A stretch of 64,000 bases of DNA from an uncultured Nitrososphaerota archaeon (GCA_963701075.1 OY969559.1:160001-224000), one strand, 5' to 3'; numbered from the stretch's first letter, positions 7,340 to 52,589 are shown. Numbers and translations are program-made. Notes: generated from the letters alone by a model not told the origin.

Positions 7340-7434
7340 TCAACAATGGGTTCTATTTTTTGCATATATGAATTACGTAACTTTGTTGACGAACTTTGTT
7401 CCCTATGCTCTGCCACGATATTTTTTATGATAAA

Positions 7435-8499
7435 TTAAAGTCTGATTTGTGATCTTTCACCAAGTAAGAACTGGTGCTTTTTTGGATGCGTGTGGTCCTC
7501 AATTTCTGATTCACGGGCTATGATGCTGTCTACTAGGTGCACTCTAGCATCAATCTTTGCGCCTTCCATTATGATTGAATTTTCAATGTCACATTTTTTT
7601 AAAGATACATTGTTTCCAACGCTGGCATAAGGTCCAAGCCTTACTGCAGGCCCTATGGTACAATTATCGCCAATTATTACAGGCCCTGTAACAAACGAGT
7701 CTCTGGATATGGTTGTGTTCTTTCCAATTACTAAATTTCCTCTAACTTCTGAGCCGCTTGATATTACAAACTGGTTCGGCGTTCCAATTGAATCCAGCAC
7801 CAATTGGTTTGCATGCAAGATATCTTCTGGCGTGCCCGTATCCTTCCACCAGCCTGTTACCGTATCATATTCTATTGTACCACCACTGTTCATCAAAAGG
7901 TCCAGCGCATCTGTAATCTCTAGCTCGCCCCGCCATGACGGCTTTAGCTTGTCTATTATACCAAATATCTTGGGGGTGAGAAAATAGATTCCAATTACTG
8001 CCAGGTTTGACTGAGGGTTTTTTGGCTTTTCCATTATCTTTTTTATTTTCTTTCCGTCAAGCTCTGCTATGCCAAACCTTGAAGGGTCGTCGACTTCGCA
8101 GAGAAGTATCATTGCCTCTGCACTGGATACTTTGAATTTTTTTGTATAGTCGACCAGTCCCTTTCGTAAAATGTTGTCGCCAAGATATACGACAAACCTG
8201 TCATTTCCGATAAAGTCTTTGCATAATCTGATTGCATGAGAGATGCCAGCAGGCTTGTCCTGGTAAATGTATGTAATTTTTACGCCAAATTTAGAACCGT
8301 CGCCGTAGAACTCTTTTACCTTTTCCGGATAGACATCTCCTATTATGATTCCAATCTCGGTGATTCCCGCCTCTCTGAAATCTTCGAGTGCATACTGTGA
8401 CATGGGCTTGTTTGCAATTGGTAAAAGTTGCTTAGGTCCTGTATGTGTGAGCGGTCTCAGTCTTGTCCCATGGCCGCCGTGAAGTATGATTCCTTTCAT
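7435..8499 (-). CDS. rfbA: Glucose-1-phosphate thymidylyltransferase, long form
   Basis: GGHGTRLRPLT..GPKQLLP, RGELEITD, C-terminal hexapeptide repeats. Confidence 0.93.
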   Translation of the reverse strand: MKGIILHGGHGTRLRPLTHTGPKQLLPIANKPMSQYALEDFREAGITEIGIIIGDVYPEKVKEFYGDGSKFGVKITYIYQDKPAGISHAIRLCKDFIGNDRFVVYLGDNILRKGLVDYTKKFKVSSAEAMILLCEVDDPSRFGIAELDGKKIKKIMEKPKNPQSNLAVIGIYFLTPKIFGIIDKLKPSWRGELEITDALDLLMNSGGTIEYDTVTGWWKDTGTPEDILHANQLVLDSIGTPNQFVISSGSEVRGNLVIGKNTTISRDSFVTGPVIIGDNCTIGPAVRLGPYASVGNNVSLKKCDIENSIIMEGAKIDARVHLVDSIIARESEIEDHTHPKKHQFLLGERSQIRL

Positions 8500-8581
8500 T
8501 TTGATCCGTGTTATGATATACAGCATATTTCAAGGTGCTGTCAAATTAGATTCATAAAAATAACTATCTGGTGAGATCAAC

Positions 8582-8605
8582 AGGTTCTGTCAACTTGATG
8601 GCTCA
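8582..8605 (+). mobile_element. Solo copy of the left terminal inverted repeat of the TnpB element
   Basis: AGGTTCTGTCAACTTGATGGCTCA identical to 10123-10146. Confidence 0.8.
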
Positions 8606-8634
8606 ATGGTTTGTAGTGACTTGGAGTTAACTAG

Positions 8635-8868
8635 TCATCCAAGAAGCCTTGAAAAATCTTCCACGCTCATTCCAGCATCATCTATTATTCTGCTCAACGT
8701 GCCTTTCTTCAACTCTTTATGCAAGGGAACAGTAAGCTTGATTATTTTATCAGCATGAACTTTTTCTAATCTCACATGACTGCCTTTCTGTCTTATGACC
8801 CTAAAACCAGCCTTACTGAGTGCCTTTATGACATCCTTGCCAGAAGTTATAGGTAGTTTGGTGCTCAA
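8635..8868 (-). CDS. hicA: HicA toxin
   Basis: GF..IRQKGSH...TVPLH.EL.KGTL..I motif. Confidence 0.92.
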   Translation of the reverse strand: MSTKLPITSGKDVIKALSKAGFRVIRQKGSHVRLEKVHADKIIKLTVPLHKELKKGTLSRIIDDAGMSVEDFSRLLG

Positions 8869-9056
8869 ATAGCAACCTCAACAATCTCCTTTCCTTCTGC
8901 TTTCTCAGTATATTCTAGATAAAGCTCTATGGCTTCTCGTATGTTGTGAAGTGTTTCTTCTTTTGTTTCACCTTCACTTATACATCCCGGAAGTGATGGT
9001 ACGTATGCAGTATAACCTCCCTCTTCTTGTGACTCGAGAACTACCTTGATCTTCAA
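8865..9056 (-). CDS. hicB: HicB antitoxin
   Basis: EEGGY.AYVPSLPGCISEGET.EE...NIREAIELYLE. Confidence 0.92.
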   Translation of the reverse strand: MKIKVVLESQEEGGYTAYVPSLPGCISEGETKEETLHNIREAIELYLEYTEKAEGKEIVEVAI

Positions 9057-9145
9057 CTGTTATAATTTTGTCTAGGTGATAAATATTGGTTCTGTTTGAT
9101 ATGTCTTATTGCCCTCAACTGGCAAAGTTACTTGAAATCTGGTCT

Positions 9146-10021
9146 CTACTTTATCTCTTCTATAAACAGATCAAGGCCTTTTTCTATAGTCATTGGCTTT
9201 TCCTTGAGAAGCGATGCTGCTTTTGATATATCAAGTGACGAATCTTTTGGCCTCTTGGCAGTCCAGTTCATGTCTGCCATATTGGTTGGCCTCAATAGTT
9301 TTTTGTCAAGGCCTAGCTTGTCTGCAACCATCTCTGCCATGTCGTATCTTGAGATTCGTGTTGCCCCCGATACGTGAAGTATTCCCTGAATCTTTCTAGA
9401 AGATATCTCAATTAACATTCTTGACAGATTTGGCACATATGTTGGAGATGTGTACTGGTCAGTTATGATATCAAGTGGGGTTTTTGCCCTGAGATTTTCT
9501 GCAATAAATATTGGAAAACTCTTCTTCTTTGGATGTATTCCGTATGGCGTGCTAGTTCTTGCTATACACCACTTTGTTGCAATCTCTTTTACTGCACTCT
9601 CGCCTTCTAGCTTTGATCTTCCATAATGATCAATTGGCTCGGTATTGTCGGATTCTTTTTTCATCCCATTTTCTCCGTCAAAGACGTAATCTGTTGATAC
9701 GTATACAAGAAATGCCCCTAGCTTTGTTGCCTGCTCAGCTATGATTGCAGTTGACTTGGAATTAATCTTTGTAGCAAGATCTTTTTGTGTCTCGCACAGG
9801 TCAACATTTGTCATTGCAGCCAGATGAATTATCACATCGGGCTTGGTTGACTCTACAACCTTGATGATAGCGTCTTGGCTTGTCAGGTCAAGCTGCGTTG
9901 CAATTCCATCTTCTGGCTTTGAATTATTGTAACAGGAATAGACGTGTGTGTATGATTGTAGAAGGTCCTTTACGACCTGCCTTCCTACAAGACCTGCTGA
10001 ACCTGTTACTAGAAATTTCAT
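9146..10021 (-). CDS. rfbD: dTDP-4-dehydrorhamnose reductase
   Basis: TGSAGLVG, STDYVFDG, YGRSK, DQYTSPT, RP.DSSL motifs. Confidence 0.93.
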   Translation of the reverse strand: MKFLVTGSAGLVGRQVVKDLLQSYTHVYSCYNNSKPEDGIATQLDLTSQDAIIKVVESTKPDVIIHLAAMTNVDLCETQKDLATKINSKSTAIIAEQATKLGAFLVYVSTDYVFDGENGMKKESDNTEPIDHYGRSKLEGESAVKEIATKWCIARTSTPYGIHPKKKSFPIFIAENLRAKTPLDIITDQYTSPTYVPNLSRMLIEISSRKIQGILHVSGATRISRYDMAEMVADKLGLDKKLLRPTNMADMNWTAKRPKDSSLDISKAASLLKEKPMTIEKGLDLFIEEIK

Positions 10022-10123
10022 CTTCGATTCACTCCATACCATAATCAAAAAACATGTTTTATTTCTTGTCTACGAGTTGTTTTGATGTGTTATTTCTTGT
10101 GTTTTGTTTGAATGCTAATCTTA

Positions 10124-11403
10124 GGTTCTGTCAACTTGATGGCTCATGGCAGGCATTGTAAACTTCTTGAGATATATCACAATTACCTGCTCTTTTAAGA
10201 AGATCAAAGATATCAAAAGCCTACCGTGTTATCAGTCAAATGTGTAACACAGAACCATCGCTGTGCCGAGATTGTACCAGTGATGAAGGATTTCAGGTCT
10301 GTTGTAAACGATGCAATAAAGCTGGGTATCGAACATAACATTACTTCGAGATTTAAACTACGAAGCCTGGTCTATCCAAGGTTTAACAAGATGATGTATT
10401 CTGGATATGTCTATACCGCAATTTGGAAGGCTTGTGCCATGCTCAAAAACTATCGCAGAACAAAAAAGAAGAATGCTCATGCCAGGATACCTGTCATGAA
10501 AAGTCACATCCTTGTAATTGATAACCAGAGATACGAGATAATCCACAACCATCTCAAGTTTCCAGTCAGGCCTAGGCAGTTTGTATACATTCCTCTCAAT
10601 CACTACGTTTGTAAAATTTTACTGCAACCAGGTCTGAAACTTGGTGAGGTTACATTAACTGAAGAAAAACTCTTCATATCTTATACAAAAGTGATATCCA
10701 AAAAGGAGCCAAAGGGATACATTGGAATTGACATGAACCTTGAGAACGCAACTGGCACAGATGAAAGCGGCACCACTACAATAGTAGACACATCTGATAT
10801 TGTATCAATGAAAGCAAAATACAGAGATGTACTGTCGCACTTTACAAGAAATGATGCCAAGATACAAAAGAGACTCAAACAAAAATATGGCAAGAAACAA
10901 AAAAACAAAGAAGATACATTCCTGCACCAGAAATCAAAGGAGATTGTATCACAAGGCAGGCAGGTCATAATGGAGAATCTCACCGGAATAAGAAGATTGT
11001 ACAGAAAAGGAAATGGTCAGGGAAAAAGGTTTAGGTTCAGACTAAACTCGTGGTCAAGATTCAAGTTGCAAAAGATGATAGAGTACAAGTCAGTTGATTG
11101 TAACGGCCTTGAAGTGATTTACATAAAACCAAATGGGACTTCATCGAGGTGTGCGACATGTGGGTCAAAACTAGTACCCGAAGAGCACCGAATGATGAGA
11201 TGTCCCTCCTGTCGTGTTACCACAGACAGGGACAAAAATGCCAGCAAGAATATTCTGGCTAGAGGCTTGGCAATGCTGGAACAGAAAGAACCAGCACGGT
11301 TCGAGCCTGACGCAGTGCAAGGTGAAGCGATGAAGCAGTTCAAAGATGTGGAGCAGATTGCACCGAGTCTACTTGTTGGACGAGCCATCAAGTTGACAGA
11401 ACC
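10124..11403 (+). mobile_element. Non-autonomous TIR-bounded element carrying only tnpB
   Basis: Perfect 25-bp inverted repeat 10121-10145 / 11382-11406; flanking direct repeat TAATCTT(A/G) at 10116-10123 and 11404-11411; exact ends ambiguous by 1 nt. Confidence 0.85.
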
Positions 11404-11416
11404 TAATCTTGTGTGA
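10226..11416 (+). CDS. tnpB: TnpB RNA-guided endonuclease (IS200/IS605 OrfB family)
   Basis: RuvC-I GIDMN, RuvC-II IMENL, zinc finger CATC..CPSC, RuvC-III DRDKNAS. Confidence 0.93.
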   Translation: MLSVKCVTQNHRCAEIVPVMKDFRSVVNDAIKLGIEHNITSRFKLRSLVYPRFNKMMYSGYVYTAIWKACAMLKNYRRTKKKNAHARIPVMKSHILVIDNQRYEIIHNHLKFPVRPRQFVYIPLNHYVCKILLQPGLKLGEVTLTEEKLFISYTKVISKKEPKGYIGIDMNLENATGTDESGTTTIVDTSDIVSMKAKYRDVLSHFTRNDAKIQKRLKQKYGKKQKNKEDTFLHQKSKEIVSQGRQVIMENLTGIRRLYRKGNGQGKRFRFRLNSWSRFKLQKMIEYKSVDCNGLEVIYIKPNGTSSRCATCGSKLVPEEHRMMRCPSCRVTTDRDKNASKNILARGLAMLEQKEPARFEPDAVQGEAMKQFKDVEQIAPSLLVGRAIKLTEPNLV

Positions 11417-11713
11417 CTCGTCAGCAATCTTTTGCGAGATGTAATCAACATTTTTTCGCATGCCCTGAACTACTGGACTGTCCATATTAATCGAGTAAAG
11501 CTTGGCGTTTGCGATCTTCCGGTTTACCCTAATCATTCCAAATTCAACGAGATTGTCAAAGTACTTGTAAAACGTAGTCTTGCTCATGCCTAGTGCCTCA
11601 ATTATCTCCTTTTGCATAAAGTCATTTTTTGGAAAGTCCATAAGATAAGACAGGATCTTCATCTGGGGCGAGCTGCCATAGGCCCTAAGAAGAAGGGGAG
11701 ATGATTCCGACAT
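11369..11713 (-). CDS. Winged-HTH protein; native C-terminus displaced by the TnpB element
   Basis: wHTH pattern (EIIEALGMSKTTFYKYF..LVEFG); native tail ISIQTKHKK* lies at 10090-10119. Confidence 0.75.
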   Translation of the reverse strand: MSESSPLLLRAYGSSPQMKILSYLMDFPKNDFMQKEIIEALGMSKTTFYKYFDNLVEFGMIRVNRKIANAKLYSINMDSPVVQGMRKNVDYISQKIADESHKIRFCQLDGSSNK

Positions 11714-11777
11714 GGTTTTATCTTCCTCTAAAAAGTATTTAAATCATAACTTTAGAAGGTATCATAAGTGTACCTAG

Positions 11778-12059
11778 TTGAAGGCTACGTTTACTGATGA
11801 CCAGCTACGCGCCCAGATCCTATACTATCTATGGAACCAGGGAAGCTGGTCTGAAATCTATACAAATATTGACAAGATGGTAAGAAGATTGGGAAATGTT
11901 GTAAAGAACAACGGAAAGAATACAATGAAAAAGGTGGAAGACCTTGTCAAATGGAACTGGGTTTTACCGCGCAAAAATTGGGATACGGTTTCATTGAATC
12001 CAATATTCAAGTCTCAAATTAGCCAGTACATAGGGTTACACTTGATTGGACAATCATAA
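11778..12059 (+). CDS. Hypothetical protein, divergent partner of the wHTH gene
   Basis: 93-aa ORF with W..I.T...VSLNP pattern. Confidence 0.6.
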   Translation: MKATFTDDQLRAQILYYLWNQGSWSEIYTNIDKMVRRLGNVVKNNGKNTMKKVEDLVKWNWVLPRKNWDTVSLNPIFKSQISQYIGLHLIGQS

Positions 12060-12072
12060 TGTCGTTTTTTGG

Positions 12073-12117
12073 TTGCCTTCCGACAAGTCCTGCAGAGCCT
12101 GTTACAAGAAATTTCAT
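12073..12117 (-). pseudogene. Displaced rfbD 5' fragment (copy 2)
   Basis: Encodes MKFLVTGSAGLVGRQ, identical in protein to the rfbD start, with synonymous differences. Confidence 0.9.
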
Positions 12118-12161
12118 ATTTGATTACCTGCCTTACCATTTAGAACCAGCGTATTGTATAC

Positions 12162-12485
12162 CTACAGTTTGATAGCCGCATCCCATCTCTTCTTTGCGGT
12201 CGGGCTTGCGTAAATCCATACTATCGAACCATCTTTGTCAAGCAATACCTTATTTGACTTTTCAAGATAACGCAAAATAACATTAAGAACTGGTGGCCTC
12301 ATGGTGACATCTAACTTCTTTACCAATTGTGCTTTAGAGTCAAACTCTTTGTACTCTGCAAGAAGCTGTTCGACTTTTAGAATATTTTTTAACGTAGGGT
12401 TATACTTTTGAATGCTTTTGTGCATGTCGTCTCTTGATTCCAAACCTGGATTGTGTTTTGCTACAAATACTGTCTTTGGTTTCAT
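12162..12485 (-). CDS. Putative wHTH-like antitoxin
   Basis: PTL..IL.VE...ILRYLEKSNKV...IVWI pattern; downstream of a RelE-like gene. Confidence 0.6.
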   Translation of the reverse strand: MKPKTVFVAKHNPGLESRDDMHKSIQKYNPTLKNILKVEQLLAEYKEFDSKAQLVKKLDVTMRPPVLNVILRYLEKSNKVLLDKDGSIVWIYASPTAKKRWDAAIKL

Positions 12486-12536
12486 GGTATACAATGCATT
12501 GCATACTTCTTGTATATATGTACGTACATTTATGTA

Positions 12537-12857
12537 TCAATAGCCAAATCTCTTATTGTATTTTTCATGATCGAATAATTCCATTAAAAGGGCTTTTTTC
12601 TCATTGTGTATTGCAGTTATACCATAAATCAAACGCCAATGGCCGGGCAGGTCTACCTTGAAGACGGCATTAACATCGTGTCTTTTGAGATAGTGTTTTG
12701 GAATCTGTTCTCGTTTTAGGCGAACCCCGACTATTTTATCACTTTTCAAATTACTAATGATCTCTTTTACAACCTTGTACAACGCATCATCTTTGTCAAG
12801 TGCATCATAGACAGGCATAAAGTCATCAGGATCTCCTCCTACTTCCATTCCCATCAC
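12537..12857 (-). CDS. Putative RelE-like toxin
   Basis: IPKHY...VFKVDLPGHWRLIY...ELFDHEKYNKRFGY. Confidence 0.65.
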   Translation of the reverse strand: MMGMEVGGDPDDFMPVYDALDKDDALYKVVKEIISNLKSDKIVGVRLKREQIPKHYLKRHDVNAVFKVDLPGHWRLIYGITAIHNEKKALLMELFDHEKYNKRFGY

Positions 12858-12872
12858 ATAACTTGACAGAGA

Positions 12873-12968
12873 TTAAAACTTGATACTCAGCTGTTTAGAT
12901 CTTGTTTTGAGGTCTTGTATGACCTGCCTTCCGACAAGTCCCGCAGAGCCTGTTACAAGAAATTTCAT
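12873..12968 (-). pseudogene. Displaced rfbD 5' fragment (copy 3)
   Basis: Encodes MKFLVTGSAGLVGRQVIQDL then diverges to a stop after 31 aa; 45/46 nt identical to copy 2. Confidence 0.9.
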
Positions 12969-13026
12969 ATATCATTTACACCAAAGGACTTGTTTTTAAA
13001 ATCAGATCATATACTTGCAACTTTTT

Positions 13027-13483
13027 TTACCTGAATATCTCATCTTTGTTCTTTATTATAGTATGTTCCTCTTTTTCTATGCTGTTAACAAGTTGCCTTG
13101 CCTCATTTCTTGTGACTACATCATCCTTGATTGCAAGCCTCAATATCCTTGGTAGCGAAAAATAATTCATGTTATCTCCCTTGCACAATCTATGCACTAT
13201 CTTTTCATTGCTTGCAAGTGGAATATTTCGGTTCTTTGCTATAACATAGCATTCTTTTTCTCCCTTGTCAAGCTTCACTGTATGCATACTTTAGATCCTT
13301 TAACTCACCGGTTGTTAATTGAACAAACTCAGGACCAAGCTTCTTGATCTCTATTTTTCCTTCCGCAAGTTCAACCTTTACTGATGGTGGTACAATAATA
13401 GCTTCAAAAAGTTTGTTTAATATATCAAGCCTCCCAATTCTTGCAAAAATGCTCAGCATGTCTGTATCGACAACAATCTTCAT
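13027..13483 (-). CDS. PIN-domain toxin (DUF3368-like), apparent +1 frameshift near 13271-13275
   Basis: IVVDTDMLS N-terminus and LDKGE.EC...ASNE C-half in different frames; one-base removal gives 151 aa. Confidence 0.8.
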
Positions 13484-13486
13484 TCA

Positions 13487-13807
13487 TTACCTGCTCTTGA
13501 TCTTTTCAATCACACTGTCCATCTTTGACGCGCTTTCTGCTTCTATTACCCTCTTGATGCCGTACTCTTTTAGTTTCTCCTTGAATTCTATTATGCCAAC
13601 ATCTGCAATCTCGGCTGCCTTGCCAAGGGTGACCTCTCCCTTTTTGTATAGTCCCACTGCAGCTGCAAGTCTTAGGTTCTTTTTATTGCTGAACATGTAT
13701 CTGAGGGCGTCCTTGACAACATCGGACTTGCTTGAATAATACCCTGATTTGACCAGCTCGTCTATTTCCTTCTTGACTATTTCTGGCAGGTTGTAGCTTG
13801 AAGGCAT
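13487..13807 (-). CDS. Ribbon-helix-helix + UPF0175-type antitoxin
   Basis: LVKSGYYSSKSDVVKDALR and LYKKGEVTLGKAAEIA motifs. Confidence 0.8.
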   Translation of the reverse strand: MPSSYNLPEIVKKEIDELVKSGYYSSKSDVVKDALRYMFSNKKNLRLAAAVGLYKKGEVTLGKAAEIADVGIIEFKEKLKEYGIKRVIEAESASKMDSVIEKIKSR

Positions 13808-13913
13808 ACAATGTATTGATAACTATTATCATAAATAACTATCGGTTCTTGTGATCCGGCTTGCGTCATCTGGATCTGCCTATATAACCCTCCCAGGAGT
13901 TAGCGTTCTCTTT

Positions 13914-14912
13914 TTACCAGTTTACAGTCCAGGGTTGGGGATGAAGTGTCTTTTCATCTGCAAGTGGCTCCCACCAAGACTTGTTGTTTTGATACCATGA
14001 TACGGTTTCCTGCAATGCTTGGTCAAACTGGTATCTAGGCTTCCATCCCGTTGCCTTCATTATTTTCGATGCATCAATGGAATACCTCTTGTCGTGTCCC
14101 GGCCTGTCGCCTACGTTTTCTATGATATCAAGTGGTTTTTTCATCTGGTTGAGTATTTTTTCAACTATGATTCTGTTTGTAATCTCGTTCCATGCTGTGA
14201 TGTTATAGACCTCGCCTGACTTGCCCTTTTCTATTAGCTCGTCAATTGCCTGTACATGGTCAAGAACATAGATCCAGCTTCTGATCTGGTTTCCTGAACC
14301 ATAGAGTGGAACTTTGAGGTTCTTGGAAGCTCGAATTATTGTCTTTGGGATTAGCTTCTCTGGAAATTGATTAGGTCCAAAGTTGTTGGTGCATCTTGTA
14401 GTGATGCATTTTATGCCGTATGTCCTATGGTAAGATTCCACTAGGAGATCAGCTGATGCCTTTGTGGCTGAATAGGGATTGCTTGGCTTGAGGATATCGT
14501 GCTCTGTAAATGATTCCTTGTTCTCTGCATCGCCGTAAATCTCGTCAGTTGATACATGTATGAACAGCTTGTCGTGTCTTCTTGCTGCCTCTAGGATGGA
14601 ATATGTTCCCAAGACATTTGTCTCTATGAATGGTTTTGGGTTTGATATGGAACGGTCAACGTGGGTCTCTGCTGCAAAGTTTACTATCACATCTGATTCC
14701 TTTGCAAGTTTGTTTATGTTATCTTGCGATCTGATGTCGTCTTTGATGAAAGAATAATTTGGATTCTTTTCTACCTCTTTTAGGTTTTCTAAATTGGAAC
14801 CAATTGTCAGGCTGTCAAGATTTACTATGGTATCTTTTGGATTATTTTTAAGGTGGTTTCTGATATGCGCACTTCCAATAAAGCCTGCCCCGCCACAAAC
14901 TAGAAGTTTCAC
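13914..14912 (-). CDS. rfbB: dTDP-glucose 4,6-dehydratase
   Basis: GGAGFIGS, AAETHVDRSI, STDE.YG, PYSATK, DRPGHD.RY. Confidence 0.95.
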   Translation of the reverse strand: MKLLVCGGAGFIGSAHIRNHLKNNPKDTIVNLDSLTIGSNLENLKEVEKNPNYSFIKDDIRSQDNINKLAKESDVIVNFAAETHVDRSISNPKPFIETNVLGTYSILEAARRHDKLFIHVSTDEIYGDAENKESFTEHDILKPSNPYSATKASADLLVESYHRTYGIKCITTRCTNNFGPNQFPEKLIPKTIIRASKNLKVPLYGSGNQIRSWIYVLDHVQAIDELIEKGKSGEVYNITAWNEITNRIIVEKILNQMKKPLDIIENVGDRPGHDKRYSIDASKIMKATGWKPRYQFDQALQETVSWYQNNKSWWEPLADEKTLHPQPWTVNW

Positions 14913-15002
14913 ATCTTGGAGAATCCAATCTTATTATTTATTCTAATCTGGCGTTTTATCGGTATACGAAGTTGTTGCCTGTGTTTTTCAAGCTAGTTTG
15001 TA

Positions 15003-16411
15003 TTATTTTTCACTTGATTTTTTCATTTTATCAACGATATCATCATACTTCCTAAGTAATCTCCAAGTAAAACTTTGATGTATATCATCTAACGAGGATT
15101 GCAAGCTGGTGATTTGTAGATCTTTATCTGCAATAGCTTTGTTATAGTTCTCTAACGAGGATTGCAAGCTGGTGATTTGTAGATCTTTATCGGTAATAGC
15201 TTTGTTATAGTTCTCTAACGAGGATTGCAAGCTGGTGATTTGTAGATCTTTATCGGTAATAGACTTTGTTATAGTTCTCTAACGAGGATTGCAAGACTGG
15301 TGATTTGCAGATCTTTATCGGTAATAGCTTTGTTATAGTTCTCTAACGAGGATTGCAGACTGGTGATTTGCAGATCTTTATCGGTAATAGCTTTGTTATA
15401 GTTCTCTAACGAGGATTGCAAGCTGGTGATTTGCAGATAAAGATCTGCAATAGCTTTGTTATAATACATAAGTAGCCTCAGTAAACGTTCTAATGAGTCG
15501 TTTTGTGTGAATTGAATTACCTTTGTCGATAAAAACTCAGATTGCTCTGTGGAATTTGATAGATAGTATTTCTTAACATCATAACCTAATTTTATCATCA
15601 ATTCACCAGTTATCTTGATGATTTCTGAAATCTCCTCCTTTGAGAGGTATTCAGAATATTGATTTAGTGAAGATGTATGAATTGGTAATCTTGGATCAGT
15701 TTTTCCAATTGCGAGTCCCGTTTCATCTAATTCCGGATGAAGAAGTTTTTCATGTTTTAGAACCGCATCTTCCCAAGATACATCCAAGAAATTCAAAATG
15801 GTAGATATGGTAGGAATGGGTTTTGTAACGAGATTCTCGTAAAACACCAGAATTATCTGAGATGTCTTATTTGCATAATTGTAATATGATGATGTTTTTA
15901 TTTTCCAATATATTGCTCCTGCCACAGTTGCCTTAAATTTCGTGTTTTCAAGCAATCGAATCTCTTCGCGATAGATATTATCAAAGTCTGGAATAGTTTT
16001 TCTCCAAAAGTCGATAGTGCTTTCAGCCCATATTTCTAACCAAGATTTACTTCCCTGATCCAATTTTTTCATAGAAGCAATAGTATCCAGTGGATTTCTG
16101 ACCAAGAAGATCATAGGAATATTACTATAATGGTTCACCATTCCCAGAAAATCTGCTCCAGCATCTGCAATAAATGGTTCTAAGAATTGTTCTGTGATTC
16201 TGGGAGTTTTAAACCCCAACCACTTTTTTGCTTGATTAATCTTTAATTCTTTATTCAATAATTCAGTTTCTCTAAGAATAGAATAAGATCTTAATTCATC
16301 AACACATGAAATCATTGAGTGACTTTCCAAAACTAGTCGCATTAATGTAGTGCCACTTCTCTGACAGCCAATAATGAAAAATATTTTGGGAAGATTTTTT
16401 TCTATCAACAT
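15003..16411 (-). CDS. Sulfotransferase with C-terminal tandem-repeat coiled coil (two apparent +1 frameshifts)
   Basis: GCQRSGTT and RNP.D.IAS PAPS-binding motifs; removing inserted bases at ~15263 and ~15296 gives one 468-aa ORF. Confidence 0.85.
15088..15462 (-). repeat. 63-bp coding tandem repeat, about 6 copies (SSLENYNKAITDKDLQITSLQ)
   Basis: Units start at 15088, 15151, 15214, 15278, 15342, 15405. Confidence 0.95.
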
Positions 16412-16568: not shown

Positions 16569-17126
16569 TTATTCATAGACAAAATTGTTGTCTGCATTTT
16601 TTAAGGTAGGTAATTGCAGATCCTTTTTTATCATGATTGGCTTGTCTGTTGGCCACTTGATAGCTATGTCTTGATCGTTCCAGAGTATTCCTCTCTCATG
16701 CTCTGGAGAATATTCAGAGTTTACCTTGTAGAGTACGTCTGCTTTCTCACTTGTCACGCAAAATCCATGTGCAAAGCCCTCTGGGATATACAGTAGGTTA
16801 TGATTTTTGTCTGAAAGTATCTGGCTTACCCATCTTCCATATGTGGGCGAGCCTTTGCGGATATCAACTACAACATCAAATATTTCCCCTCTTGTTACCA
16901 TCACTAGCTTTGCCTGTGCTTTTGGATCCTTTTGATAATGCAGTCCTCGTATGACTCCTTTGACTGAATGGGAATAATTGTCTTGAACGAATTTTGTGTT
17001 TATTCCGTTTGCGCTGAAAATAGACTCTTTGAAGCTCTCCATGAAAAGGCCTCTCTCGTCTGAAAATGCTCTAGATTCCACAAGTATCACTTCAGGAATG
17101 CTTAGTTTTTTGAATCCAAATGGCAT
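16569..17126 (-). CDS. rfbC: dTDP-4-dehydrorhamnose 3,5-epimerase
   Basis: DERG.F.E, FVQDN.S.S..GV.RGLH, PEGFAHGF. Confidence 0.95.
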   Translation of the reverse strand: MPFGFKKLSIPEVILVESRAFSDERGLFMESFKESIFSANGINTKFVQDNYSHSVKGVIRGLHYQKDPKAQAKLVMVTRGEIFDVVVDIRKGSPTYGRWVSQILSDKNHNLLYIPEGFAHGFCVTSEKADVLYKVNSEYSPEHERGILWNDQDIAIKWPTDKPIMIKKDLQLPTLKNADNNFVYE

Positions 17127-17445
17127 AGCTAAAGCTAAAGAGATAAGATAATAGATTTTTCGCCAAAAATTGATCTGTTTAGGGCAATATCTTGGCTGTC
17201 TATCAATTTTTGGGTTGCCAGATTACAGGACATTGCACTGATTCCCTCTTTTACACTTTCAATTAGATTTTATGGTTTTGAAGATAATATGAGACTTTTC
17301 CCAGTAGACCTTCGTGTTCCAACTAGACCGGCAAAAACAAGGGAAGATCATTGTAACCATAAAAACATCCGCTAGACCATAGAGAACAAAGTTAGTCAAC
17401 AAAGTTACTGAATTCCTATATGTAAAAAAATCAATATGTATTATT

Positions 17446-18843: not shown

Positions 18844-19599
18844 TTATGTTCTTATTTGTGATGCAAACTGTCTGTACTTTTCAACTACAGTTTTTGGATC
18901 TCCATATTCCTGAATCCTACCATTGTGTATCCATAGTACATTGTCACAAAGTTTTTCCATCTGTTCTACTGCATGTGATACAAATACAATCGTTTTCCCT
19001 TTCTTTTTAAATTCCATAAATGCGTTAAAGCTCTTCTCCTGGAACGAGATATCACCTACTGATAACACCTCATCTACAAGTAAGATATCTGGGTCTACCT
19101 GAATTGCAGTAGAAAACGCCAATCTGGCGTTCATTCCTGATGAAAAGTTCTTCAATTTTGTATCAAGGAATTTTTCAAGCTCTGCAAATCTGGATATATC
19201 TTCTATCTTTTGTGTGATCTCTTTTTTTGTAAATCCCAGAATTACACCGTATATTATTATGTTGTCCCTTGCAGTAAGTTCTCCATTAAATCCTGTTCCA
19301 AGCTCCAAGAAAGGAATTACTTTACCATTTATGATTACATTTCCTTTGTCAGGACGGTATATTCTTCCTATTATCTTAAGTAGCGTGGTCTTGCCGCTTC
19401 CATTGAATCCTATTATCCCAAGCATCTGGCCTTTTCTTACTGAAAAAGAGATATCTTTTAGAACTGGAAGTTCCTCAAAGGTTCGCTTTTTATCAAAAAA
19501 TGATGTGATGTATTCAAATACAGAGGTTCTTTTTTCATGAAACAGCCTAAATGACTTGGATACGTTTTTCACTATGATGGAATAGCTGTCTTCTTCCAA
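18844..19599 (-). CDS. wzt: Polysaccharide ABC exporter ATPase
   Basis: GFNGSGKTT, FSSGM..RL, LLVDEVL, VSH; TTG start next to the wzm stop. Confidence 0.9.
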   Translation of the reverse strand: MEEDSYSIIVKNVSKSFRLFHEKRTSVFEYITSFFDKKRTFEELPVLKDISFSVRKGQMLGIIGFNGSGKTTLLKIIGRIYRPDKGNVIINGKVIPFLELGTGFNGELTARDNIIIYGVILGFTKKEITQKIEDISRFAELEKFLDTKLKNFSSGMNARLAFSTAIQVDPDILLVDEVLSVGDISFQEKSFNAFMEFKKKGKTIVFVSHAVEQMEKLCDNVLWIHNGRIQEYGDPKTVVEKYRQFASQIRT

Positions 19600-35012: not shown

Positions 35013-36152
35013 TTGCCCAAAATGAGAAGAATCAAAATCCTCTTCTTTGAACAAATTTATACAAAATATGTTGTTCATCTAAGTAAGACAATTTCCTCTG
35101 ATGAGTTTAATGTTAATTATATTGCATGTCTATCCACCCAATATTGGGAGCAATCCAATGTTGCAGGTAAAAATCATAGAGAAAGTAAAATCAAAGCACT
35201 TTCAATTCCAATAAAGACTGGATCACGTGGTACACATTTTGAAGTTATCAGTCTTCATTTTCTGTGGTATTTGATAAAAGACAAACCCGACTTGGTTGTA
35301 ATAGATCCCAATCCTGCTTTTTCAGTGTTTTATCTCTTGCTTACAAAAATTCTTGGAGCAAAAATTCTCGGATTTACAACCCATATTCCAGACAAATCTT
35401 CGTTATGGGGCAAAATTTCTGATTTCATTTTAAAGTTTAATGATTTTCTTATTGATTCCTATGTAGTACCTAGCTCGGTTAAGAAGCAACTTATGATCAA
35501 ATTAGGAATAGATTCTAATAAAATCAATGTAATAGGGCATGCAATAGATGTTGAAAAATTCCAGATTGCTGAAAATGCAATTAAGAATAAAATTTCAACC
35601 CAAAAAAAAATTATTTTATTTGTAGGACGTTTTGTCTGCTATAAGGGAATTAAATATCTGGTTGAAAGTTTTCAGCTAGTAAATGAGAAAATAAATGGCG
35701 TATGTCTAGTTCTTATTGGAGATGGGCCAGAAAAACCATCAATTAACCAATTAATAAAAAATTTGAAATTGTCTGATGATGTTTTACAAATTGATAATAT
35801 TGCAAACTCTGAAATACCTGAATATTATGCAGAGGCTGATATTCTGGTTGTTCCTTCTATAGAACCAGAACCTTTTGGTTTGGTCTACATTGAGGGAATG
35901 TCTGCAGGAAAACCAATTATTACGTTTAATGTAGGCGGCGGAGAGCAAGATTTGATCTACAATCAAAAGAATGGGTTACTTGTGAATTCAAAAGATGTCA
36001 ATGGGCTTGCTAATGCTATCATAGATCTTTTAGAGGATGATAAAAAACGAAAACAAATGGGAATGAATGCAAGAAAATTTGTTGAAGAAAATTATGATAT
36101 TCACATTATTGCAGAAAAATGGAGAAAAATAATCAGGGACCTAGTCCAATAG
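35013..36152 (+). CDS. GT4 glycosyltransferase
   Basis: FVGR...KG, EPFGLVYIEGM. Confidence 0.88.
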   Translation: MPKMRRIKILFFEQIYTKYVVHLSKTISSDEFNVNYIACLSTQYWEQSNVAGKNHRESKIKALSIPIKTGSRGTHFEVISLHFLWYLIKDKPDLVVIDPNPAFSVFYLLLTKILGAKILGFTTHIPDKSSLWGKISDFILKFNDFLIDSYVVPSSVKKQLMIKLGIDSNKINVIGHAIDVEKFQIAENAIKNKISTQKKIILFVGRFVCYKGIKYLVESFQLVNEKINGVCLVLIGDGPEKPSINQLIKNLKLSDDVLQIDNIANSEIPEYYAEADILVVPSIEPEPFGLVYIEGMSAGKPIITFNVGGGEQDLIYNQKNGLLVNSKDVNGLANAIIDLLEDDKKRKQMGMNARKFVEENYDIHIIAEKWRKIIRDLVQ

Positions 36153-36162
36153 CATGGAAATT
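36112..36162 (+). repeat. 51-bp direct repeat, copy 1
   Basis: Identical to 37579-37629. Confidence 0.95.
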
Positions 36163-36253
36163 TACCATACATGGATTTTTCAAGAAAATACAATCTAGTG
36201 AGGTTTTTGTATATCTTGATGATATTCAATATGAAAGAAATGATTGGGATAAT
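36162..36253 (+). pseudogene. WbqC-family N-terminal relic
   Basis: KKIQSSEVFVYLDDIQYERNDWDN resembles IIKNSDVFVFLDNVKFEKRSWQMRN of the intact gene at 53381. Confidence 0.6.
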
Positions 36254-36314
36254 GTACTTCTTACGCAGTATTAAACTGAATTATCAAATTTTGATTATTT
36301 TGTGAATCGGCAAC

Positions 36315-36979: not shown

Positions 36980-37420
36980 GTGAAAAAACAATTCAAAATA
37001 ACTCCATTGAAAGTATACAAGGAATTTGGAAGATATTTTCCATTCTCAACTGTAGATGTCATAATTAGAAATAGTGACGGTTCGTTCATTCTCACCAAGA
37101 GAATCATTCCTCCTTATGTTAACAAATGGCATCTACCTGGAGGGTTAATCCGAAAGGGTGAAAAATTAAGCGATGCTGCAAAAAGGGCAGTAAAAAAGGA
37201 ACTAAATTTAGAAATAAAGATAGAAAAATTTCTAGGCACATATGAAAATCCTATTTCTACAAGACATGACATCTCTCATGTTTTTATTGCCTCTGTAGTA
37301 AAGGGGGAAATAAGAAACGATTTTCAAAGTAAAGGAATAAAATTCTTTAAAAAACCGCCTAAGAATACAATTCTATATCATATCAGAATATTACAAGATG
37401 CTAAACCGTTCTTGAAATGA
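36980..37420 (+). CDS. NUDIX hydrolase, GDP-mannose mannosyl hydrolase-like
   Basis: W.LPGG.IRKGE....A.R....EL Nudix-like box. Confidence 0.8.
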   Translation: MKKQFKITPLKVYKEFGRYFPFSTVDVIIRNSDGSFILTKRIIPPYVNKWHLPGGLIRKGEKLSDAAKRAVKKELNLEIKIEKFLGTYENPISTRHDISHVFIASVVKGEIRNDFQSKGIKFFKKPPKNTILYHIRILQDAKPFLK

Positions 37421-37578: not shown

Positions 37579-37629
37579 CAGAAAAATGGAGAAAAATAAT
37601 CAGGGACCTAGTCCAATAGCATGGAAATT
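37579..37629 (+). repeat. 51-bp direct repeat, copy 2
   Basis: Identical to 36112-36162; overlaps the ugd stop. Confidence 0.95.
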
Positions 37630-38958
37630 AAGGTCTTTTTTGAATTCATCTGGTTCAAAAATTCTTCTTGCATCAATAACATTAGGCTTTCTCATAGATT
37701 TTAGGAAATCTACTGGCTTTAGGTTCTTGTATTCATCCCATTCAGTTAAAATGATGGATAGATCAGAATTGTGAAGACAGTCTCTAATTGAATTAGCATA
37801 TGATATTTTTTGACCAAAAATATCTCTCACTTTAATTATTGCCATAGGGTCGTGAACTACAATTTTTGCTCCAAGTCTCAGTAGGTGTTCTATAACTTTC
37901 AATGATACAGCATTTCTAATATCATCCGTATCTTTCTTAAAGGCAAGACCTAAAATTGAAATTTTTTTATTTTTAATTGTTTGAAGTATGTCTTTTGCAA
38001 ATTCGATTATTTCTTTGGATTGATTTTCATTAACCTCATTAACAGCAGATAGTACTGAGAGCGGTACGCCTATTTTTTCTCCATAACTCAAAAATGCAGA
38101 TACATCCTTGGGTAAACAAGACCCGCCAAATCCAGGTCCAGCATTCAGAAATTCTTTTCCTATCCTTTTGTCTTCTCCGATTGCCTCTGCAACTAAATTG
38201 ATATCTGCACCAGGGATTTTTTGGCAAAGATTTGCTATGCTGTTAATAAAACTGATTTTAGTTGCAAGAAATGCATTGTTTGAATATTTTATTACTTCTG
38301 CAGTAGATTCATTACAATAGATAATTTTTGGAATCTTCTTTTTGTATAGGTCTTTATAAAAACTGGTGAGTATTTTCCTTGCCTTTTCAAATTTGCTTCC
38401 AATTACAATCAAATGCGGATTCTCTGTATCATAAATAGATCTTCCCTCTCTAAGAAATTCAGGATTTGTAGCTATGAATATACTCTTACCCATTTTTGAC
38501 ATCGAGTTGGATTCCACAATGCTAGATAAAGAATTAGTTGTTCCTGGGACTACTGTACTTTTAATGACTATTATTTTTTCTTCGTTGCTCTTTATCAACG
38601 CACTTCCAATCTGTTTACAAGCTTCATTTATGTAAGTGAGGTTGATCTCTCCATTACTATTTTGAGGAGTTCCCACAGTTACAAAAATTATAGTAGAATT
38701 TAATACAGCTTTTGCAAGATCAGTTGTAAAAATTAAATTTTTTCTGGCATCTTTAAGATCTCTCTTCAAATTTGGTTCATAAAATGGAGGGATTCCTCTT
38801 TTTAGATTATCTATTTTTTTGATATCATTATCTACTCCATAAACAACAATACCTCTTTTAGCACAAACTACTGAAAGAGACAATCCAACATAACCACAGC
38901 CAATTACTGAAATTTTATAATTCATGTTCGTATTTTGATTGTGTTGTATAATAACCAA
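37600..38958 (-). CDS. ugd: UDP-glucose/GDP-mannose 6-dehydrogenase
   Basis: GCGYVG, NPEFLREG, GFGGSCLPKD, GLAFK..TDD.R; start may be a few codons downstream. Confidence 0.92.
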   Translation of the reverse strand: MVIIQHNQNTNMNYKISVIGCGYVGLSLSVVCAKRGIVVYGVDNDIKKIDNLKRGIPPFYEPNLKRDLKDARKNLIFTTDLAKAVLNSTIIFVTVGTPQNSNGEINLTYINEACKQIGSALIKSNEEKIIVIKSTVVPGTTNSLSSIVESNSMSKMGKSIFIATNPEFLREGRSIYDTENPHLIVIGSKFEKARKILTSFYKDLYKKKIPKIIYCNESTAEVIKYSNNAFLATKISFINSIANLCQKIPGADINLVAEAIGEDKRIGKEFLNAGPGFGGSCLPKDVSAFLSYGEKIGVPLSVLSAVNEVNENQSKEIIEFAKDILQTIKNKKISILGLAFKKDTDDIRNAVSLKVIEHLLRLGAKIVVHDPMAIIKVRDIFGQKISYANSIRDCLHNSDLSIILTEWDEYKNLKPVDFLKSMRKPNVIDARRIFEPDEFKKDLNFHAIGLGP

Positions 38959-48725: not shown

Positions 48726-49047
48726 GGTACGGACCCCTCTAGAATAAGATCATCTCATTACATACACTTTTTGAACATTATTGGAGGAATCATACATGGT
48801 AAGAAGCAAATTCATGCCCCAGAAAAAGGCAAGAATAATCTTGGAGTCATTGAACACAAACATCAGTGCTGCAGAGCTGTGCCGCAAGCAAAATATCAGC
48901 CCGCCGACATTTTACCAGTGGAAAGAAAAATTCGTAGAAGGTACAGTACACTGTCAGAATTCTACCGTTTGTGGGAGATGAGAAATAAATGAGAGTAATT
49001 GTATGTAAAATCATGCCAAAAGCGTTCTCCAAGACAGGGTCCACTCC
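48726..49047 (+). mobile_element. Internally deleted IS3-family-like element, copy 1
   Basis: Ends GGTACGGACCCC / GGGTCCACTCC, flanked by GAT/GAT; orfA HTH (ELCRK..IS..TFYQWK) fused to an orfB-like tail. Confidence 0.75.
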
Positions 49048-52265: not shown

Positions 52266-52589
52266 GGTGCGGACCCCCTGTTTTTAGTACCACTTTTTGA
52301 ATAATTTTACATACAATTACTCTCATTTATTTCTCATCTCCCACAAACGGTAGAATTCTGACAGTGTACTGTACCTTCTACGAATTTTTCTTTCCACTGG
52401 TAAAATGTCGGCGGGCTGATATTTTGCTTGCGGCACAGCTCTGCAGCACTGATGTTTGTGTTCAATGACTCCAAGATTATTCTTGCCTTTTTCTGGGGCA
52501 TGAATTTGCTTCTTACCATGTATGATTCCTCCAATAATGTTCAAAAAGTGTATGTAATGAGATGATCTTATTCTAGAGGGGTCCGTACT
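52266..52589 (-). mobile_element. Internally deleted IS3-family-like element, copy 2 (inverted)
   Basis: 52304-52588 is the reverse complement of 48727-49011; IRs GTACGGACCCC / GTGCGGACCCC. Confidence 0.8.

Follow-up and report, generated by a model that had tools for sequence, protein, structure and literature searches.

Extra copies of the rfbD gene start beside two small gene cassettes in the glycosylation island of a Nitrosotalea-like archaeon

We have analyzed a 64,000-nucleotide stretch of DNA from an uncultured Nitrososphaerota archaeon (GCA_963701075.1, OY969559.1:160001-224000; referred to throughout, at its full length, as the window), in which the start of the sugar-nucleotide gene rfbD is present three times. 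The archaeon is a Nitrosotalea-like ammonia oxidizer of soil, and the window represents a glycosylation island for its cell surface, with a rhamnose-nucleotide operon consisting of rfbC-rfbB-rfbD-rfbA-cysC. In minus-strand order the region begins with rfbC, a sulfotransferase gene, rfbB, and a UPF0175-type antitoxin gene with a split PIN-like gene, followed by a first incomplete rfbD start (stub 1), a RelE-like gene and its partner, a second incomplete start (stub 2), two divergent winged-helix genes interrupted by a TnpB element, the live rfbD gene, HicB/HicA, rfbA, and cysC. The array is a real recombination scar, formed of two two-gene cassettes and, after each, a copy of the rfbD start.

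The ATGs of the three starts are at 12968, 12117, and 10021 on the minus strand, where the original prediction, a reading of the sequence that described the region as an integron-like array of toxin-antitoxin (TA) cassettes, had placed them. Stub 1 (12909-12968, minus strand) consists of the first 60 nt (20 codons) of rfbD at its native site and runs on into a dead open reading frame (ORF) of 31 codons, stub 2 (12074-12117, minus strand) consists of the first 44 nt, and the live gene (9146-10021, minus strand) codes for a full RmlD-type dTDP-4-dehydrorhamnose reductase of 291 aa (PF04321, E 2.4e-73). The stub 2 44-mer matches stub 1 with a single mismatch (expected matches 0.00 in 100 shuffles), and self-BLAST returns the 45/46 identity previously reported for the stubs (12074-12119 versus 12925-12970), with each stub being 87.5-88.6% identical to the live start. 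Over the coding sequence alone, stub 2 is identical to stub 1 at 43/44 positions and the stubs are identical to the live start at 38-39/44 (39/44 for stub 2). The same peptide, MKFLVTGSAGLVGRQ, is encoded by stub 1, stub 2, and the live start, and all of the stub/live differences within nt 1-44 are synonymous third-codon-position changes, as had also been claimed. The likeness to rfbD ends at nt 60 (codon 20) in stub 1 and at nt 44 in stub 2; the left edge of the repeat lies at approximately -2 from the ATG, and the sequences upstream of the three copies are mutually unrelated. The longest run identical in all three copies is only 11 nt (ATGAAATTTCT), followed by one of 8 nt (GGAAGGCA).

A genome scan with the RfbD protein, in which 10-kb flanks were retained, yielded 80 loci, and the thaumarchaeal ones (L001 to L012, one genome per species) form the set of 12 related loci used here. 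The window RfbD is 88, 87, and 84% identical in amino acid sequence to those of L001, L002, and L003 (Nitrosotalea/Nitrosopumilaceae records, L001 being Nitrosotalea sp. TS), and 58-65% identical to those of Nitrosopumilus relatives; rfbB directly abuts rfbD in 10 of the 12. L001 provides an empty site. It is collinear with the window at 86% identity, such that window positions 14925-12909, containing rfbB, the UPF0175/PIN genes, the upstream region, and nt 1-60 of rfbD, correspond to L001 1-2012, and beyond nt 60 it continues straight on as rfbD (L001 1953-2838, corresponding to window 10021-9136). As L001 is uninterrupted from nt 60 onward, the window carries 2947 extra bases relative to it, all inside the first 60 nt of rfbD, and the proposal that insertions had occurred into the rfbD start is thus borne out in a sister genome. 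In a six-frame search allowing four mismatches, the rfbD-start peptide turns up three times in the window and exactly once per related locus; a second start is therefore present in 0/12, four of which have less than 2.2 kb of upstream sequence. Two cassettes are present at the rfbD start in the window and none in L001 or the 11 other loci, and neither cassette 1 nor cassette 2 adjoins rfbD in any of the 12.

The upstream regions show which of the three copies stands in the ancestral context. The region upstream of stub 1, with an AT-rich box and a GGTG motif before the ATG (12969-13010, minus strand), is homologous to the rfbD upstream regions of relatives, with scores of 237 for L001 and 43 for L002 compared with shuffle maxima of no more than 28, and those of stub 2 and the live copy have no significant homology to the relatives' rfbD upstream regions. 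Because only stub 1 has this homology, the comparison identifies it as the old gene start at the old promoter. There are six discriminating sites in nt 1-49 at which stub 1 differs from the live gene and L001 differs from L002, and stub 1 has the L001 state at all six; the live gene agrees with L002 at five of them and with neither genome at the sixth (site 30). The first 60 nt of the live gene are identical to L002 at 57/60 positions and to L001 at 49/60, and rfbD as a whole is 85% identical to both. Moreover, the two stubs, which are neutral, differ from each other at 1/44 sites and the live start differs from them at 5-6, so the stub/live difference did not accumulate in place; judged by these sites, the stubs represent one allele and the live start another. 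The presence of the other allele in the live start implies that incoming DNA brought a new rfbD start together with its own upstream signals, and this part of the original prediction agrees well with the L002-like live allele, the L001-like stub 1, and the separate upstream regions. We also sought a recombination breakpoint within the live gene. Its first eight informative sites are like L002, but a run of the same length is found in the middle of the gene, and no breakpoint can be claimed.

Cassette 1 (12118-12908, minus strand) is co-oriented with rfbD and is 851 bp long with its stub. It contains a gene for a RelE/ParE-fold toxin (12537-12857, minus strand, with the start probably at 12848) and a partner gene (12162-12494, minus strand). 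The AlphaFold2 (AF2) model of the toxin has a predicted local distance difference test (pLDDT) score of 89.7, and its top Foldseek matches in the PDB are all RelE, YoeB, ParE, and HigB toxins (best E 1.5e-3, probability 1.0, TM up to 0.74); the Pfam ParE_like match is below threshold (17.5 bits versus a cut-off of 24.4). No family was found for the partner in Pfam, NCBIfam, or the solved structures, and the ESM Atlas has only unnamed archaeal clusters. The two genes have adjacent locus tags in three public metagenome-assembled genomes (MAGs), and a model of the toxin-partner complex scores 0.84 compared with 0.02 for the best control, with the runs agreeing in 100% of contacts and a partner pLDDT of at least 78. 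The mark used for such scores is reached by 116/157 solved complexes and 2/215 mismatched pairs, although these counts apply only roughly since alignments made for this analysis were used, and the pass may be owed in part to likeness to RelE-family complexes, which are solved. The modeling thus supports a RelE/ParE-type TA pair with predicted partner binding, in keeping with the RelE-like pair described earlier. Family searches passed 57/58 candidates for the RelE-like protein, 147/148 for the partner, and 39/39 for the small winged-helix protein of cassette 2, and all three families occur only in ammonia-oxidizing archaea, where they are named 'hypothetical'. Between MAGs of Nitrosotalea, Nitrosotenuis, Nitrosarchaeum, and Nitrososphaera, members of the RelE-like and partner families share 65-92% identity, and the L003 contig, JBOGRD010000011.1, holds a 92% homologue of cassette 1 beyond position 19076. 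As this conservation across genera and orders exceeds that of RfbD (58-65% between Nitrosotalea and Nitrosopumilus), the sequences suggest that the TA pair has spread horizontally.

The 45 nt before stub 2, in cassette 1 (12118-12160), contain a stretch weakly similar to the final 29 nt of rfbB, stop codon included, with 22/29 columns shared with L004 (p ~0.006, uncorrected for 25 comparisons). We considered whether every rfbD copy is preceded by a remnant of the rfbB 3' end; the signal is weak, at stub 2 only, and absent at the live gene, with nothing significant under stricter scoring, and we regard it only as a hint. Were the likeness at stub 2 real, cassette 1 would have traveled with the whole rfbB-rfbD junction.

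Cassette 2 (10022-12073, minus strand) is approximately 766 nt without its inserted element, or approximately 810 bp with one repeat, a length similar to that of cassette 1, and its last ~99 nt form the upstream region of the live rfbD. It contains a small winged-helix gene (11778-12059, plus strand) and a divergent winged helix-turn-helix (wHTH) gene (11369-11713, minus strand). The wHTH protein has weak, generic HTH matches only (Pfam, NCBIfam, and PHROGs), and the small protein is a predicted winged helix by AF2 modeling and Foldseek; sequence comparison of the cassette proteins with solved structures gave no meaningful match, and a phage collection contained no match for two of them. The original prediction was that this pair forms a second TA cassette, and here we disagree: both proteins are winged-helix DNA binders, the genes are divergent rather than in a co-directional operon, there is no recognizable toxin, and no test gave a mark of a TA system. 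The winged-helix pair itself was correctly recognized, but a 1286-bp TnpB element within the cassette was missed.

This element (10121-11406, plus strand) is bounded by perfect 25-nt terminal inverted repeats and contains a tnpB ORF (10226-11416, plus strand; NF040570, E 2.9e-27; PF07282, E 9e-16, in the RuvC/zinc-ribbon region). It shares TnpB with insertion sequence (IS) elements of the IS200/IS605 type, but terminal inverted repeats are unusual for that type, and subterminal hairpins of the IS200/IS605 kind are not seen at its ends; the TnpB elements of L006, by contrast, have palindromic ends. There is a possible TA dinucleotide duplication at the ends, and a solo third copy of the repeat (23-24 nt) is present at 8582-8604, between hicA and rfbA; the repeat motif is absent from all 80 loci. 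The element sits in the 3' end of the cassette 2 wHTH gene, and the homology of that gene to a cassette in L004 reaches the repeat. The direct 24-nt repeat copies at 8582 and 10123, around hicAB-rfbD, were considered as a sign that the live gene had been imported en bloc, and this was rejected, since the TnpB element has the appearance of a simple insertion into cassette 2, with the wHTH frame and the ATG spacing matching the L004 cassette. We infer that the element was inserted into cassette 2 later.

The L004 cassette (13934-14942) provides a second example of the cassette 2 family. L004 is from a different thaumarchaeon, and its double winged-helix cassette is homologous to that of the window, with the wHTH proteins being 39% identical (E 6e-18) and the small proteins 28% identical (E 1e-7); at the nucleotide level the two share 382/1071 aligned columns, essentially in the coding parts only. 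It is bracketed by a perfect 44-nt direct repeat corresponding to positions -30 to +14 of an unrelated 477-aa cyclase-like gene, and is oriented opposite to that target gene. The repeat is of the same length as stub 2 (44 nt), with an unrelated sequence. Since it derives from the start of an unrelated gene, the repeat is target-derived rather than intrinsic to rfbD or the cassette, which does not agree with the earlier suggestion that the rfbD gene start is a dedicated attachment site.

We found no sign of integron-like machinery. As stated previously, there is no integrase in the window: none of the 79 ORFs scanned with Pfam has an integrase, recombinase, or DDE domain, TnpB is the sole mobile-element gene among them, and thus no intI lies beside the array within these 64 kb. 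Neither an integrase nor a fragment of one is present in the window or inside any of five repeat-flanked inserts. The repeats were also considered as attC-like hairpins, and this was ruled out, as they fold no better than shuffles (single strands, six sequences, z -1.36 to +0.83). Ten cassette ends, compared in all pairings and on both strands, have no shared motif, with two marginal low-complexity matches, and there are no terminal inverted repeats in the cassettes. Scans of the window for tRNAs and with Rfam at the gathering threshold returned nothing, and there is therefore no tRNA-type attachment (att) site. In the absence of an integrase, attC-like hairpins, and common cassette ends, and with a second rfbD start in none of the 12 relatives, the integron-like array that was originally proposed is not supported. 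An att-type signature is nonetheless present, with direct repeats over a gene end, an intact rfbD, and an empty site in L001. We found no prior description of gene-start stubs delimiting cassettes in archaea in the open-access literature searched.

Duplicated gene ends are also seen at other genes of these islands, and with the 44 and 60 nt described above their lengths are ~33, 44, 51, 51, 60, 74, 356, and 506 nt. Within the window, a perfect 51-nt direct repeat (36112-36162 and 37579-37629) flanks a 1416-bp insert and spans the overlap between two convergent genes at their 3' ends, which encode a GT1 glycosyltransferase (35013-36152) and the UDP-glucose dehydrogenase Ugd (37600-38958); the insert contains a WbqC 5' fragment (36119-36274), small ORFs, and a NUDIX gene (36980-37420), but no recombinase. 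In L011 a 51-nt repeat (98% identical) of a GT2 gene 3' end at 12967-13017 and 14683-14733 flanks a single glucose/sorbosone dehydrogenase gene, and the orthologous GT2 gene ends of L007 and L008 are without such a duplication. The junction between rfbD and rfbA is also a cassette slot, empty in 8 of the 11 loci that hold both genes and otherwise containing VapBC (L001), divergent HicAB pairs (L003 and the window), or a 203-aa protein (L005). The L001 VapBC genes are flanked by a ~33-nt repeat (30/33) of the rfbD 3' end (L001 2810-2845 and 3615-3650), and a degenerate remnant of the former rfbD 3' end precedes rfbA in L003 and in the window (8534-8575, compare 9135-9165), where it lies at the end of the HicB/HicA cassette just upstream of rfbA (8534-9135, minus strand). 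The window rfbD itself ends five codons early (EEIK-stop), and the bases beyond still resemble the ancestral tail.

A long run of defense/TA genes is found in L003, where the segment 12500-19076 contains AbiEi/AbiEii, MNT, VapB/PIN (VapBC), MazE-like, and Fic/DOC genes amid gene fragments. These include a 506-nt copy (96%) of the rfbA 3' end, cysC fragments from the 5' end (aa 1-52) and the 3' end (aa 145-174), and rfbB 3' fragments in permuted order, with aa 307-332 followed 1.4 kb on by aa 253-309. L012 has a cysC duplication of 356 nt. Overall, repeat pairs of 35-80 nt spaced 400-4000 nt apart number four in 247 kb of thaumarchaeal DNA versus three in 1055 kb of other loci, an approximately six-fold excess based on small numbers.

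The remainder of the operon and the window have additional features. The array is anchored upstream by rfbB (dTDP-glucose 4,6-dehydratase; 13914-14912, minus strand) and downstream by rfbA (glucose-1-phosphate thymidylyltransferase; 7435-8526, minus strand), with rfbC at 16569-17126 (minus strand). An older cassette common to L001 lies between rfbB and rfbD (12969-13910, minus strand), and consists of a UPF0175-type antitoxin gene (13487-13807, minus strand) and a PIN-like gene (13027-13483, minus strand). The latter is split into two overlapping ORFs of 71 and 86 aa, the L001 copy likewise being in two frames, and it is therefore probably inactivated. A 52-nt element is present in inverted copies that are 88% identical (7356-7407 and 17378-17429), just upstream of cysC (adenosine 5'-phosphosulfate kinase) and of the sulfotransferase gene, and is also found in L002; it may serve sulfation genes as a common promoter or operator. 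At and beyond the 3' end of a sulfotransferase gene (15043-15516) there are six tandem 63-nt units, corresponding to 21-aa repeats (LQITSLQSSLENYNKAI...). Elsewhere, a perfect 285-nt inverted repeat (48727-49011 and 52304-52588) surrounds ~3.3 kb containing genes for a PhyH-type dioxygenase, an aldo-keto reductase, and a short-chain dehydrogenase, and this segment looks like a recent inverted duplication or composite element. The GC content across the window falls from ~40% to ~31%.

We tentatively favor an explanation that could well be correct, though we would not call it probable, in which the array is a displacement scar grown by homology-anchored displacement. Each cassette would have come on DNA of another lineage in which it already lay directly before rfbD. 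The incoming DNA, with its own rfbD start and translation signals, would pair with the resident gene through rfbD homology, and its other end would form an illegitimate joint with the resident rfbD at nt 44 or 60, either by homology-facilitated illegitimate recombination or, equivalently, by a single crossover of a circle containing a short piece of rfbD. The resident start would be displaced upstream as a dead stub with rfbD left whole, and only such events would survive because rfbD stays whole. Host recombination would do the work, with the gene start acting as a conserved-sequence foothold rather than as a specialized attachment site, and the TA genes of cassette 1, being addictive, would favor retention of the insert. 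Displacement of this kind would explain the different alleles, the common left edge at the ATG, the unequal right edges, the varied relic lengths, and the absent recombinase. Both repeats begin at the ATG, where homology with a donor bearing a cassette in the rfbB-rfbD junction would begin, and junction cassettes do exist, with UPF0175/PIN in the rfbB-rfbD junction of the window and L001, and others exactly in the rfbD-rfbA junction. The spread of relic lengths (44 and 60 nt here, and ~33, 74, 356, and 506 nt elsewhere) fits arbitrary illegitimate joints, but lengths of 44 and 51 nt each occur twice.

Several observations weigh against homology-anchored displacement. The expected donor arrangement, with cassette 1 or 2 before an intact rfbD and no stub, is present in 0/12 related loci, and no recombination breakpoint is clearly placeable in the body of the live rfbD. 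The cassettes are tight units with intact genes: 51-60 nt precede the first gene of cassette 1, and cassette 2 runs on for 14 nt past its last gene. Random illegitimate joints would not be expected to give such units three times, L004 being counted. The exact match of the L004 repeat to the 44 nt of stub 2 has to be a coincidence under displacement. Furthermore, the 51-nt repeat at 36112 and 37579 means that some process here must make ~50-nt duplications on insertion, because a donor context could yield a repeat of two gene ends only if there had been a prior duplication. These archaea are not known to take up DNA or to carry out homology-facilitated illegitimate recombination.

A rather unlikely but serious alternative is that the cassettes are integrative elements, or their decayed remnants, moved by a site-specific, tyrosine-type recombinase acting in trans at an att site in the rfbD start, each bringing a replacement gene start and with the TA genes surviving decay because they are addictive; this is a classical form of the original prediction. 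Such elements have a standard signature, in which direct repeats overlap a gene end, the gene is restored, and a relative has the empty site; the tight cassette boundaries, the excess of 35-80-nt repeat pairs in thaumarchaeal DNA, and the perfect 51-nt repeat, which needs a duplication-making or att-type event, are also in its favor. The repeats of ~33-60 nt lie inside the 29-69 bp span given for att sites in crenarchaea. Tandem re-use of one site by tyrosine-recombinase elements is known from a survey of thaumarchaeal elements, in which 14/68 occupy the 3' ends of protein genes, one of them replacing the stop codon (PMC6563490). On the other hand, neither the window nor the five repeat-flanked inserts has an integrase or fragment, the array is in 0/12 relatives, and the three rfbD copies share no more than 11 identical bases in a row, making a poor common core. 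In L004 the cassette 2 family is flanked by an unrelated repeat and lies in the opposite orientation, so the site is not specified by the cassette. As far as the accessible part of the survey extends, most att sites in thaumarchaea are short (median 17 bp), and the 68 catalogued elements have 39 tRNA, 15 intergenic, and 14 protein-gene 3'-end targets, with 0/68 in a protein-gene 5' end and no integrase-less cassettes listed (PMC6563490).

The recurrence of particular repeat lengths raises the alternative of a transposition-like process with its enzyme in trans, in which wide staggered cuts and fill-in duplicate 44 nt for the double winged-helix cassette or 51-60 nt for others and the live allele results from later gene conversion. 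It would account for the 44-nt repeats made by one cassette family at two unrelated targets, one perfect and in either orientation, for two unrelated inserts with 51-nt repeats (36112/37579 in the window, 100%; 12967/14683 in L011, 98%), and for the fact that a 51-nt repeat over two convergent gene ends must arise at insertion. However, there are no terminal inverted repeats or conserved ends, each repeat length is represented by two cases only, and both rfbD duplications begin at the ATG, which random staggered cuts would not give; that stub 2 and the live start differ at 5/44 sites when the neutral stubs differ at one is left unexplained. We consider this quite improbable. Very improbable is a local tandem duplication of the rfbD start with decay and unrelated insertions and no cassette mobility. 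The near identity of the stubs (45/46) and the restriction of the array to the window among the 12 relatives are compatible with it, but the unrelated material between the copies consists of intact conserved foreign gene pairs, the live start is of another allele than the stubs, and a homologous cassette is repeat-flanked in L004. A broader conjecture, which we think unlikely, is that ammonia-oxidizing archaea have an uncatalogued system in which an enzyme acting in trans inserts self-promoted cassettes of 0.8-1.7 kb at gene ends while duplicating ~33-60 nt of target. Such a system would duplicate 44 nt for the double winged-helix cassette, which has been seen twice at unrelated targets, and would leave genes intact while building serial arrays bounded by copies of gene ends. 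If true, it would be a functional analogue of the integron without intI or attC.

Comparison with known systems helps to place the array. Tandem integrative elements can accrete on one att site, and integrase-less att-flanked remnants (cis-mobilizable elements, or CIME-type accretion) are known. The rfbD array resembles these in its gene-end repeats, in the restoration of the gene by element-borne sequence, in the empty site in relatives, and in having units in series, but differs in having no integrase in view, units of only ~0.8 kb, a protein-gene 5' end as target, and at best a poor common identical core, and in the occurrence of the same cassette type with an unrelated repeat elsewhere. 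TA cassettes occur in the chromosomal integron arrays of Vibrio, and integrons have reportedly been found in archaea as well (by Ghaly et al. in 2022). Small serial cassettes, one of them a TA pair, with a recurring delimiter beside a fixed genomic point, are common to integrons and the rfbD array; unlike integrons, the array has no intI, attI, or attC hairpins, its delimiter is a coding gene start, and one cassette has divergent genes with its own promoters. Insertion sequences of the IS1634/IS1549 type make long, variable target duplications, and their inserts are likewise flanked by direct repeats of tens to hundreds of target bases, but they encode a transposase and have terminal inverted repeats, whereas the window cassettes have neither.

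A close parallel is with the orphan arrays of type VI secretion system (T6SS), Rhs, and contact-dependent inhibition (CDI) toxins. T6SS orphan-immunity and Rhs/CDI arrays also consist of serial modules, each with a stub of a conserved gene before or after it, in which the incoming module brings its own conserved segment and displaces the old one without a dedicated recombinase, and homology-facilitated illegitimate recombination has been proposed for them (Kirchberger et al. 2017, PMC5361080). Those arrays are bacterial, have effector/immunity modules, and displace the 3' end of a toxin gene downstream; in this archaeon it is the 5' end of a housekeeping sugar-nucleotide gene that is displaced upstream, and the modules are a RelE-type TA pair and winged-helix genes. 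By analogy, the rfbD array can be viewed as a mirror image of the Rhs/CDI/T6SS orphan arrays.

The empty-site control shows how TA and regulator cassettes accumulate in an essential-looking archaeal sugar-nucleotide operon without breaking it. If host recombination is responsible, the logic of displacement arrays would apply beyond bacterial Rhs, CDI, and T6SS loci, in archaea and at the starts of housekeeping genes, and would explain the gene-end relics that litter the glycosylation islands of ammonia oxidizers. If instead an enzyme acting in trans makes the 44-60-nt duplications, these cassettes would represent an undescribed class of mobile cassette in a group of global importance, in which only integrase-bearing elements have been catalogued. 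Under either mechanism, gene-start stubs are useful annotation markers of past insertions.

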